From positions 3,872,001 through 3,936,000 of the forward strand of contig OZ243938.1 in the NCBI GenBank assembly GCA_965214095.1: 64,000 bases of DNA, given 5' to 3'. Origin of the DNA: Candidatus Poribacteria bacterium (GTDB lineage Bacteria; Poribacteria; WGA-4E; WGA-3G). The position numbers were made by a program, and so were the translations under genes. The notes beneath the pieces are model-generated. The model did not search any database. It was not told the origin of the DNA and worked only from the letters and a program-made list of their open reading frames with translations. Shown here in pieces: positions 43,485 through 46,616 of the stretch (its first letter is position 1; each line of letters opens with the position of its first letter).

Positions 43485-43692
43485 TAATTACTCTTACCAA
43501 TTCTGAATGTTTCTAAGTTCGTTAGTTTTGCAAGGGCACTTATATCACTAATTTCAGTACCTCTGAACCATAACCAGCGTAGTTTGTAAGTTTTTCGAAT
43601 ACACTTTCGAGCGCATTTAAATCGCTAAATTCATAGTCGATTTCCAGCCGTTGTAGGTCCGTTAGTTTTTCAAGTGGACTTATATCAATAAG
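43485..43692 (-). pseudogene. Frameshifted relic of an LRR gene
   Basis: Manual translation IDISPLEKLTDLQRLEIDYEFSDLNALE...KLTN / RWLWFRGTEISDISALAKLTNLETFRIGKSN, with a frameshift and no start. Confidence 0.7.
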
Positions 43693-44002
43693 CGATGACT
43701 TATTTCATTCACCCGATCCTTATTTCAAACTGCCTCAAAAACAAGAAACTAAAATATTATATATCATTAATCATATTAACTCAACTATACTAATTATGTA
43801 TTATAAAAAATAAGTTGATTTAATATGACTTATATCTGCAATTCATAGAACTATCATAAAGCACAAAGTTACTTGAATGCTTGTATAGTGCAACCTTTTT
43901 GTTTGTGTCTATTGGTGCACAAACTACATGAATATAAAAATAAATTCGGTGATGTTTGGTGAGAAGTTCTACGCGCTTACAAAGCACGTCTACGAGTGGG
44001 AA

Positions 44003-44160
44003 AATCGGGGTTGGAAACCCCTCCAACAATGGAAGTGGCGCGTGAATTGCGCGACTACGAACGGGATTTTGTCTGGTTCAGACATTGGCGGGGTTGGAGA
44101 GCAATCGGGGTTGGAAACCCTCCAACAATTGAAAAGGCGCGTGAATTGCGCGACGACAAA
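44003..44160. repeat. Tandem two-family REP cluster (about 100-bp period, 2 units)
   Basis: aatcggggttggaaacc(c)ctccaacaat followed by ggcgcgtgaattgcgcgac, present twice. Confidence 0.8.
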
Positions 44161-44811
44161 TTACTGCATAATGCACTGCTGTGTGTGGCATATATTATTT
44201 GATTGCTTTTTGATATTCATAAGTCCAGTCAACAACCTTATATCCGAGATTACTATAAAAGAGAATAGCTCGATAATTCTCCAAATTTGTGCTTATGGAT
44301 GCATGACGGTAACCTGCCTTTTGCATCTCTTGAAGCGAATACTGAAGTAAGAATTTCCCAAATCCTTTTCCTTGAAAGTCATCTTCAATTCCAAGCCATT
44401 CTGTATATGTCCAGTCTTGTGCGTCTGGATGTCGTGAAAAAACACCTGCTGAGATACTATGACATTCACCAACTTTTTCCTCTGCTTTGTGAGCTTTTAC
44501 GGTACAGTTTGCCCGTTCTCCACGACCCTCTGTCCATTCTATAGAGAAGGTAATAGGTATCTTTGGCGGAGTTGGTGTTACATTGAAGTTCTCCCAATCA
44601 AAGATTGCTTGTCCATGAATACGTCTGTACCCGTTATATCCAAGCAGTGCTTTAACGTGACCAAGTCTGTCGGAAAGCTGCGCATAAGCGAAGTAATAGC
44701 AAGGATACCTATAATGTCTTGAATAGGCATAGACCTGTGTTATATTCTTACCAAACGTTGCGGTGTGAAAGCCCAAGTCTTTAGATTTGGGATGAAACAC
44801 CGCCAAAAACC

Positions 44812-44840
44812 TTGATTTTGTTCAAGAAATGTGGTATATT
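44812..44840 (+). promoter_or_regulatory. sigma70-type promoter inside the IS605-like element
   Basis: TTGATT-17 bp-TATATT with extended TG, just inside the LE. Confidence 0.55.
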
Positions 44841-44846
44841 CTATAT

Positions 44847-45274
44847 GTCAACTGGATAGGAAAGCAATCATTGGCAACCTTGCCAATGTCTTATCCAATC
44901 CACTTGCTTGGACAGAGTTGATGTTGATACTCTCAACGATACCACATTCGGTTGTATACGCTGCAAGTTGTGATCCTTGCCAGTCGTTTGTGATGAGTTC
45001 TGGAATCGCTTTATGAGATTGTGGCGGTGTTCCCTCCACAACCGCGAAATAACAGAACAATAGACAAAGTATCTGGGACGATTTTGGGGTAATAAAGTAG
45101 TCCCTGTTAGTCGTGTCTTGGCGGGCACCCCCACAATTGCTGTGCTGGTAAACTTGGCTTGAACCCAAGTGAGTAGTCTATAAGCCTATAAAAGATGCCC
45201 ACATTTTCAAAAAACTCTCGGAGTGAGAAGATGACCTAAAAGAACCCCAATCCTTTAGGTTTAGGAGCCGTCAG
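44847..45274 (+). ncRNA. Candidate structured RNA (omega/reRNA-like) of the IS605-like element
   Basis: Downstream of the promoter, no convincing ORF, multiple stems (cattggcaa/ttgccaatg inside tggatagga/tcttatcca; acttgg/ccaagt; gggca/tgccc). Confidence 0.35.
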
Positions 45275-45642
45275 TACGCAAGTAATCTTCAGTCTTTTCA
45301 AGAATTGCTTGTCCAACCTGTCGGGCATTAACTTCGTATCCAAAAAACAGGATATGTGCAGTTTTGTCAATATTATGCTCTCTATCTTGTGACAAGCCTA
45401 AATGTATAAAAGATTTCACTTTACCATTTTGCACCGCGACAAAAGCAGTTTCTGACTTAAAATCGTCCTTATAGTAATATTTGGATTTACCTATAACGCC
45501 ACTCGTAGCAAACTCTAAATCATCTTCTTTGACAGGATAGCAATGAGGAACATCAACTGTAAAATCATTGTAAAACTTTGTCAAAGGTGTCAGTAGGTCA
45601 GAGGTATATTGGATTATTTCCATAAGTAAATTCAATCCTCAA

Positions 45643-45736
45643 TTATGGAATATTCTATAGTGGTATCGATCCATCTATACTTCCACTTCCGAGTGTCTTC
45701 CATCAGAAGCAAAAGCAATTGACTCAATCAACCACT
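45643..45736 (-). pseudogene. Relic of a terminal WD40 repeat
   Basis: Manual translation LIESIAFASDG / KTLGSGSIDGSIPL*NIP*, a decayed VxSVAFSPDGKTLASGSxDGTIxLWD. Confidence 0.55.
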
Positions 45737-45875
45737 TTATAACTAAACCTAAAAACATTAGGATACTTAACCATGGTAGGATGGGTTTCTGTTTCTCCCG
45801 TTGTCATCCAACGTGAAGACAGAAAATCCTGGTCATTTATTCATCTTGAAAAACTTGTTCAGACAAATGTAATGA

Positions 45876-46616
45876 TTAATCCGGTGGTCTGGGTTGTGAG
45901 TCAAACCCATAAAGCCTACGCATAATAGGTGTAGCCCGTTCTAATGCTTCTGGTTTGAGGAAATGCACAAAATCAAACATCGGTTTAATATATGACCTGC
46001 AGCAAAAACAGATAAGGGCAACGCGCTGACGATCCGTCTTGTTTGCACCTGCTGAATGCCAGATTGCACCGTTGAATAAGAATACTGAACCTTTTGGAGC
46101 AGTAAGTCGTACTTCGTCGGGATGGTGTGTTGTTCCCGCAGGCGGTTTTATCTGTTGAAGATGAATTCCAGGAACATGACGTGTGCCACCATTTTCTGGA
46201 GTAAAATCATCAAGTAACCATAGACTGTTAGCCACCAATGGAAAACTCGGGAGTGGTTCTGGCATGCCACCCAAAACGTTATCAACGTGATACCCACCGT
46301 CAGGTGCACCCGGATCGAGAATGTTTGAGGTAAGTGTGCTTAATGTATAATCTGGACCAAGCAGATGTTCAAAGAACGGCATCACTTTAGGATGTGCAAC
46401 GAGTTTGTCGTAAATCTCACCTTTGTTAGGCAACCATCTCACGTGCTGACCATGATCATTAGAATGACGAAGGGCTGAACCATTCTGTTTTTCTTCATCT
46501 GCTATACGAAGTATATCCTCACGATACATCTCAATTTCTTCGTTAGAAAGCACATCAGGAATGACAATACATCCCTGCTCATCCAACTGCTTCTTTTGCG
46601 CTTCGGTGATACTCAT
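45876..46616 (-). CDS. PhyH family dioxygenase
   Basis: YHVDN, LDDFTPENGGT, IWHSAGAN...R. Confidence 0.9.
   Translation of the reverse strand: MSITEAQKKQLDEQGCIVIPDVLSNEEIEMYREDILRIADEEKQNGSALRHSNDHGQHVRWLPNKGEIYDKLVAHPKVMPFFEHLLGPDYTLSTLTSNILDPGAPDGGYHVDNVLGGMPEPLPSFPLVANSLWLLDDFTPENGGTRHVPGIHLQQIKPPAGTTHHPDEVRLTAPKGSVFLFNGAIWHSAGANKTDRQRVALICFCCRSYIKPMFDFVHFLKPEALERATPIMRRLYGFDSQPRPPD

Follow-up and report, generated by a model that had tools for sequence, protein, structure and literature searches.

A protein-less IS200/IS605-family element of Poribacteria that probably provides a stand-alone omega RNA

The insertion, its ends and its copies

The window, as the whole 64,000-nucleotide stretch of Candidatus Poribacteria DNA analysed here is called, contains a GNAT gene on the minus strand that is divided in two. 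Its C-terminal part occupies 44195-44751, an open reading frame that matches PF00583 (E 2.3e-9), and its N-terminal part occupies 45275-45635, an open frame joined without interruption to the C-terminal part in relatives and in RNA-library contigs. What separates them, 44752-45274 on the plus strand, is an exact 523-bp insertion that lies directly 3' of TTAC (44748-44751) and has produced no target duplication, as an earlier note on this DNA had proposed from the letters alone. The proposal is supported by copies of the same segment in unrelated flanks and by the empty sites that the note had recommended looking for. In four related genomes (G027, G016, G017 and G021) the flanks adjoin at exactly 44751|45275 (query positions 557|1081), and in contigs from two RNA libraries, X1 and X4, base 44751 is followed directly by 45275, so that exactly 523 bases (CA..AG) are missing and the joint is unambiguous. 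From these empty alleles it follows that the insertion is exact, free of duplication and polymorphic in nature. The RNA-library contigs are unstranded and are usable only for this joint and for the presence of short pieces; those pieces of the interior that they cover are short and belong to other copies, and neither their depth nor the uncovered stretches of the element are informative about expression.

Removal of the insert restores the GNAT gene in frame, and on this point too the earlier note was right. The N-terminal part contributes 361 nt before 45275, and the C-terminal frame has 44751 and 44750 as the second and third positions of a codon, so that the junction codon becomes AGT (Ser) once the insert is taken out. 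The surroundings of this gene have a history of their own. When locus L070 of G027 is compared with window positions 44195-45635, its N-terminal GNAT part is 98% identical and the C-terminal part adjoining it 81%, and a 98% match to the C-terminal end of the window's gene sits about 1.2 kb further along; this pattern points to GNAT paralogues in tandem, with the locus rearranged in one of the two genomes. A search for open frames of at least 150 aa in L070 1300-2600 and one for tandem repeats near 43600-44400 of the window found none.

Both ends of the insert are of the IS608 type, as the earlier note had read them and as the sequence bears out. The left end (44752-44811, plus strand) has an outer stem that pairs 44760-44766 with 44797-44803, the guide AAAG at 44768-44771 and a hairpin at 44772-44791, and the right end (45242-45274, plus strand) consists of GAAC (45242-45245), a hairpin (45246-45265) and the cleavage site TCAG (45271-45274), its limit being fixed by the empty sites. 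In IS608 itself the right-end tetranucleotide is TCAA. The ends of the insert are sub-terminal hairpins, not terminal inverted repeats, and the hairpin arms covary among copies, including the pairing counted as helix 23.

The genome of the window (G000, 5.2 Mb in four contigs) holds three full copies of the element, 100, 98 and 94% identical, in unrelated flanks. All three have TTAC immediately 5' and GCCGTCAG at the 3' end, followed by 3' flanks that differ, and further copies occur in relatives; the earlier note had named copies in different flanks as something to look for. A fourth, divergent copy on contig C1 (about 79745-80290, minus strand) has TTAT immediately 5', and in copies elsewhere the target covaries with the left-end guide. 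Several reduced derivatives lie on the same contig. At C1:1527901-1527949 (plus strand) a minimal element of 49 bp, with TTAC before it and GCCGTCAG as its last bases, joins the left end's 5' half to the right end's 3' half via the hairpin that the two share. A truncated copy at C1:789283-789400 (minus strand), again after TTAC, comprises the left end, the promoter and 27 nt of the RNA before it passes into unrelated DNA, and a solo left end after TTAC at C1:4250584-4250645 (plus strand) is now a near-perfect palindrome. Two of the four full copies, C1:79745-80290 (minus strand) and C1:1997607-1998129 (plus strand), each lie a short distance 3' of the right end of an IS that bears tnpB. The distance is 55 nt for one, where the IS has tnpA and tnpB, and about 150 nt for the other, where it is counted from the right end of a 341-aa tnpB frame. 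Such neighbourhoods may reflect chance or a site preference.

A promoter and a covarying interior

Just inside the left end lies a sigma-70-type promoter (44812-44840, plus strand): TTGATT at 44812-44817, a spacer of 17 nt and TATATT at 44835-44840, with TGG upstream as an extended -10. A consensus promoter scan detects it as one of 6 sites in 1.1 kb, where 2.1 are expected, so that the scan alone is weak evidence. The comparison of copies says more. All 22 aligned copies, drawn from 11 genomes, have identical or almost identical -35 and -10 cores, and this conservation across species upholds the promoter where the earlier note had placed it. The promoter is also homologous to the tnpB promoter of a related tnpB-only IS family (nhmmer model positions 5-50).

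No transposase gene follows this promoter. A blastx comparison of the element with all open frames of at least 80 aa in its genome gave no transposase match, neither tnpA nor tnpB; this result, the lack of any Pfam match and the lack of a conserved frame agree with the earlier statement that no intact copy of either gene lies inside. What does follow is a predicted RNA of about 430 nt, starting from about 44847, in which three regions can be told apart on the plus strand. The 5' domain (44847-44937) comprises helices P1, P2, P2a, P3 and P4, and it resembles the 5'-UTR leader of related tnpB genes. The middle domain (44943-45058) contains P5, P5b, P6, P7 and P8, and its 3' part is a relic of the stretch that codes for RuvC-III in tnpB. 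The third region (45069-45273) is an omega-RNA-like scaffold with helices S0-S7, a proposed pseudoknot and the right-end hairpin; its homologues are the 3' ends of related tnpB elements. Covariation is found in all three.

Is this interior truly folded as drawn? RNAalifold, applied to 22 aligned copies, returns 80 pairs, 32 of them with compensatory changes. A fuller structure of 110 pairs was drawn by hand on 35 distinct copies, with 19 named helices and the pseudoknot, which the counting tool splits into 23 helices. This structure was derived from the very sequences on which it was scored, which lends it some favour, and the copies are related; read with that limit, 89.9% of its cells are paired, compared with 34-44% when partners are slid by 1-3 columns, and double-sided changes occur in 63 of the 110 pairs, compared with 18-24 in the slid controls. 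The covariation score over the 35 copies is 0.292 against 0.05-0.08 in the same kind of control, and on four of five measures none of 500 shuffles reached the observed value (6 of 500 did so on the fifth). G-U cells outnumber A-C cells by 195 to 86 (2.3:1), which favours the plus strand. The hairpin-rich interior that the earlier note had suspected of being RNA is thus a covarying structure on the strand that the promoter faces. The evidence for RNA structure is comparative, not thermodynamic: taken alone, the sequence folds with an ordinary energy (z = -1.52), and 9 of 100 shuffles fold equally well.

The proposed pseudoknot deserves separate mention. It would pair a hairpin loop at 45119-45123 (UGGCG) with 45269-45273 (CGUCA), and the two partners change together, reading UGGCA/UGUCA in the parent family and UGACC/GGUCA in the divergent copy. 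The scaffold terminates at the right end in all aligned copies. A match to the Rfam models for HEARO, the IS605-orfB motifs or group I introns, which the earlier note had thought worth seeking, did not emerge: a search of window positions 43500-46500 against all families of Rfam 15 gave no match at E up to 1, and neither did seven related loci, among them parent-type tnpB elements.

Origin and possible partners

The origin of this interior can be followed through its relatives. Homology connects the last 240 nt or so of the element with the 3' end of an IS family that has tnpB only, the region in which TnpB elements encode their omega RNA (summarised in PMC10055086). In a comparison with the 3' ends of such elements by nhmmer, 14 loci match at E < 1e-5 (best 3.5e-12), and positions of about 214-418 of the family profile align with the last 115 nt or so of tnpB and the DNA downstream of it in related loci; the link between the 3' half and the TnpB guide-RNA region, suggested in the earlier note, is thereby supported. 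Against the 3' region of the tnpB-only IS resident in the window's own genome the profile scores weakly, at E 0.13 on the genome scale and 0.003 in a small set. The alignment extends into coding sequence, with the stretch of about 45015-45050 corresponding to the RuvC-III codons (HRDGxGAIN) of the tnpB-only family, so that this part of the insert is a coding relic now evolving as RNA. The earlier note was partly right on this matter: a relic of tnpB is present here, in the RuvC-III stretch, but the CxxC string that it had quoted is not conserved among copies.

The 5' portion tells a similar story. Bases 1-87 of the insert, promoter included, show 85% identity with the left end of the resident tnpB-only IS, which has an intact tnpB and likewise follows TTAC. 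A covariance model of the first 100 nt or so of the RNA, named R1, matches the 5' UTR just upstream of tnpB in 12 of the 20 loci searched, 7 of them at E < 0.2, and it matches best (E 2.9e-7) in G012, at the leader of a different TnpB family. Run against the whole genome of the window at E up to 1, R1 finds only the four copies of the element, the resident tnpB leader not being among the matches; in a small search that leader scores E = 2. On these alignments the simplest history would be that an internal deletion joined promoter and leader directly to the region of the omega RNA.

The leaders themselves have a feature worth recording. In at least two TnpB families, tnpB genes carry beside the promoter a structured leader of the form P1[P2[P2a]]P3 (L143 of G012, reverse strand 152-252, and the 5' UTRs of L074-L092), after which the 3' strand of P1 is repeated, overlapping or abutting the start codon. 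The repeated strand could be a translational switch.

Another candidate for the parent, the IS with both tnpA and tnpB that is present in four copies, was rejected: the shared sequence reaches only to the right end of this IS, an end that overlaps the stop codon of tnpB, and the IS uses TTCAC as target. The element-like DNA that follows one of these copies is a separate insertion at TTAT. Partial matches to the interior in other genomes were examined at ten loci, none of which has tnpB beside it, and a motif pattern scan of the genome was uninformative, its matches being mostly chance.

Which proteins, then, might serve the element? The resident tnpB-only IS lies at about C1:2247160-2248560, directly after TTAC, and encodes an intact TnpB of 391 aa (P0001, C1:2247208-2248380) with matches to PF07282 (E 1.5e-22) and PF01385 (E 1.1e-11). 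TnpB of this parent type is encoded once in the genome, in an element with the same left-end type and the same TTAC as the insert. The 3' ends differ, however: all of the protein-less elements end in GAGCCGTCA and all parent-type elements in GAGT(AT)GTCA, and the scaffold of the former has an additional hairpin of about 45 nt, S6. The scaffold is therefore a diverged paralogue of the 3' region of the resident TnpB, not a copy of it, and compatibility is not assured. The parent family is itself unusual, with Gly in place of the RuvC-II Glu in all 17 aligned members, which read IVIGDL, against E(T/N/D)L in the other TnpBs of the genome. PMC10691335 predicts that TnpBs with this change are active, an activity that it describes as untested. 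As for a transposase, four intact genes for Y1 TnpA are present, each in an IS that combines tnpA with a tnpB of 421 aa, and in three of the four IS copies the left-end hairpin is 96% identical over 25 nt to that of the insert.

Other genomes of the genus give a view of how element and partner travel together. Parent-type TnpB is found in 9 of the 13 genomes with the element compared with 7 of the 27 without it, these genomes being related and not independent. The four remaining element-bearing genomes have no close parent-type TnpB, and three of these four are multi-contig drafts. In G027 and G030 the protein-less copies and the parent-type tnpB element alike carry a TTAT-type left end, and in the genome of the window both carry the TTAC type. 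The parent-type copy of G040 is a pseudogene after TTCAC.

Taken together, the ends, the promoter, the structured interior and its relatives make it probable that the insert is a non-autonomous PATE of the IS200/IS605 family that was derived from a tnpB-only IS and expresses a stand-alone omega RNA for a TnpB supplied in trans. Almost the entire tnpB reading frame would have been deleted from such an IS. The resulting PATE would have kept both ends, which Y1 TnpA would need for single-strand peel-and-paste 3' of TTAC; the tnpB promoter with the structured mRNA leader; and the last 330 nt or so of the parent, which would encode the omega-RNA scaffold. A Y1 TnpA supplied in trans would move the element. 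Transcription from about 44847 would yield the scaffold of about 430 nt and run across the right end into the flank, where the first 16 nt or so past 45274 would form the guide (45275-45290, plus strand), a segment predicted by analogy with TnpB omega RNAs. In the empty allele this segment lies directly after TTAC 44748-44751, which would act as its TAM. The TnpB of the parent family, encoded at C1:2247208-2248380, would load the element's RNA in trans and, after excision, cut the empty site of TTAC plus guide; recombination would then restore the element, and its retention would be favoured. Transcription, binding by TnpB, cleavage and mobilisation by the resident TnpA are steps that we infer.

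A bolder extension of this reading, one that we regard as unlikely, would make the element a hyperparasite that depends on one IS family for TnpA and on a second for TnpB, and that outnumbers its parent (in G027, at least seven copies of the element are present against one parent-type tnpB). The retained leader would then be a functional RNA module, perhaps a repeated-strand switch, that serves to make, stabilise or load the omega RNA and does not only control the translation of tnpB. The same structured leader also stands upstream of tnpB in at least two TnpB families.

Could the interior be an RNA with a role other than that of a guide? It might titrate TnpB as a decoy, regulate by way of the leader that it has kept, or be antisense to the genes it enters, or its hairpins might act in the single-stranded DNA intermediate of transposition. 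The leader domain is conserved with no open frame downstream of it, the leader repeat permits two alternative pairings, and in the window the RNA would enter the 5' part of the GNAT gene in antisense. Moreover, the top strand that TnpA handles is also the RNA strand, so that covariation cannot separate DNA folding from RNA folding, and the excess of G-U over A-C cells is only 2.3-fold. However, the scaffold shares with omega RNAs a 3' limit precisely at the right end, the partners of the pseudoknot between loop and 3' end covary across three subfamilies, and a conserved promoter would be needless for a function in DNA alone. Roles of this kind we consider rather unlikely.

Less likely still, and in our view quite improbable, is that the element is an inert deletion remnant, mobilised via its ends, whose interior has no function and whose apparent structure was simply inherited from the coding and omega regions of the parent. 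The derivation of the interior from the tnpB leader and the tnpB 3' end, the ordinary folding energy and the presence of truncated and minimal derivatives in the same genome would all suit such a remnant. Yet the promoter is invariant in copies that have diverged by 18-29%, the double-sided changes extend to helices of the leader and of former coding sequence although no reading frame survives there, and the same interior is found on different left-end and target modules. A small protein as the product is hardly credible and was rejected: frames of 106 and 88 aa on the minus strand and of 61 aa on the plus strand are present in the window copy, but none of the three has a Pfam match, the 106-aa frame is already disrupted in the 94% identical copy, the longest open frame differs over 35 copies in its strand, its frame and its length, which runs from 53 to 137 codons, and the indels between copies are not multiples of three.

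Known systems, distribution and target variants

The stand-alone omega RNA, the reading that we prefer, has published company. Stand-alone, mobilised omega RNAs occur alongside effector loci and were reported to function in trans when an effector is compatible (Altae-Tran et al. 2021, in the summary given by PMC10691335). Like them, the present element is a mobilised guide-RNA locus that has no effector or transposase gene and sits in genomes with effector-bearing loci; unlike those described in that summary, it has its own conserved promoter, a tnpB mRNA leader, a length of about 430 nt and a scaffold that is a diverged paralogue of the resident TnpB RNA. The omega RNAs that PATEs, for their part, often encode need a TnpB that other IS copies supply (Meers et al. 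2023, PMC10055086). The ISGst PATEs of Geobacillus stearothermophilus are likewise minimal derivatives of IS200/IS605 that have a left and a right end but no gene for a protein; by comparison, the poribacterial element belongs to a different phylum, is conserved over many species with covariation, and combines several left-end and target variants with the same cargo. IS608 of Helicobacter pylori, as portrayed in the same source, resembles the element in its insertion 3' of TTAC with no duplication, its sub-terminal hairpins, the 4-nt guide AAAG that precedes the left hairpin on the 5' side, and cleavage at the right end a few bases past the right hairpin (at TCAG in the element). It differs in that the element has neither tnpA nor tnpB and shows the target variants TTAT and TTAA with matching changes of the guide. 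The Gly at the RuvC-II Glu of the parent TnpB family (17 of 17 members) recalls the RuvC-II-rearranged clades (RIIr), the largest of which has the same change (PMC10691335), a likeness of motif.

Stand-alone omega RNAs and PATEs that bear omega RNAs are thus already in print, and the element is a well-documented further case. A narrow literature search returned nothing on Poribacteria or on this RNA family, which published supplements may list. The accepted picture is unchanged, and what is added is a well-resolved case from sponge-associated bacteria. Its interest lies in the clean natural example that it gives of guide, nuclease and transposase on separate mobile elements within one genome: the guide alone is carried by one kind of element, the nuclease alone by a single other whose ends and target motif match, and the transposase by further elements whose hairpin is nearly the same. 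The many diverged copies, in addition, yield a structure, backed by covariation, for a long omega RNA from a TnpB clade whose active site is rearranged, and they illustrate how the target is changed (TTAC, TTAT, TTAA) via one base of the left-end guide.

The element is a poribacterial one on present evidence. In the taxonomic family, 68 of 112 genomes have some match to the insert, most of these matches covering the end hairpins only. The full-length interior is found at 71-82% identity in nine other genomes, eight of the same genus and one of a sister genus, and four further genomes of the genus have only pieces of the interior longer than 200 nt. An exact-pattern scan of one genome per species over 185,579 species detected 38 stretches in seven assemblies, all of them Candidatus Poribacteria.

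Within this range the target varies in step with the left end. Distinct left ends combine guide and target as AAAG/TTAC, AAAA/TTAT, AAAT/TTAA and AATG/TTAC, and this matching of guide to target is the recognition rule of IS608. In other genomes the same interior is borne on these different left-end and target modules.
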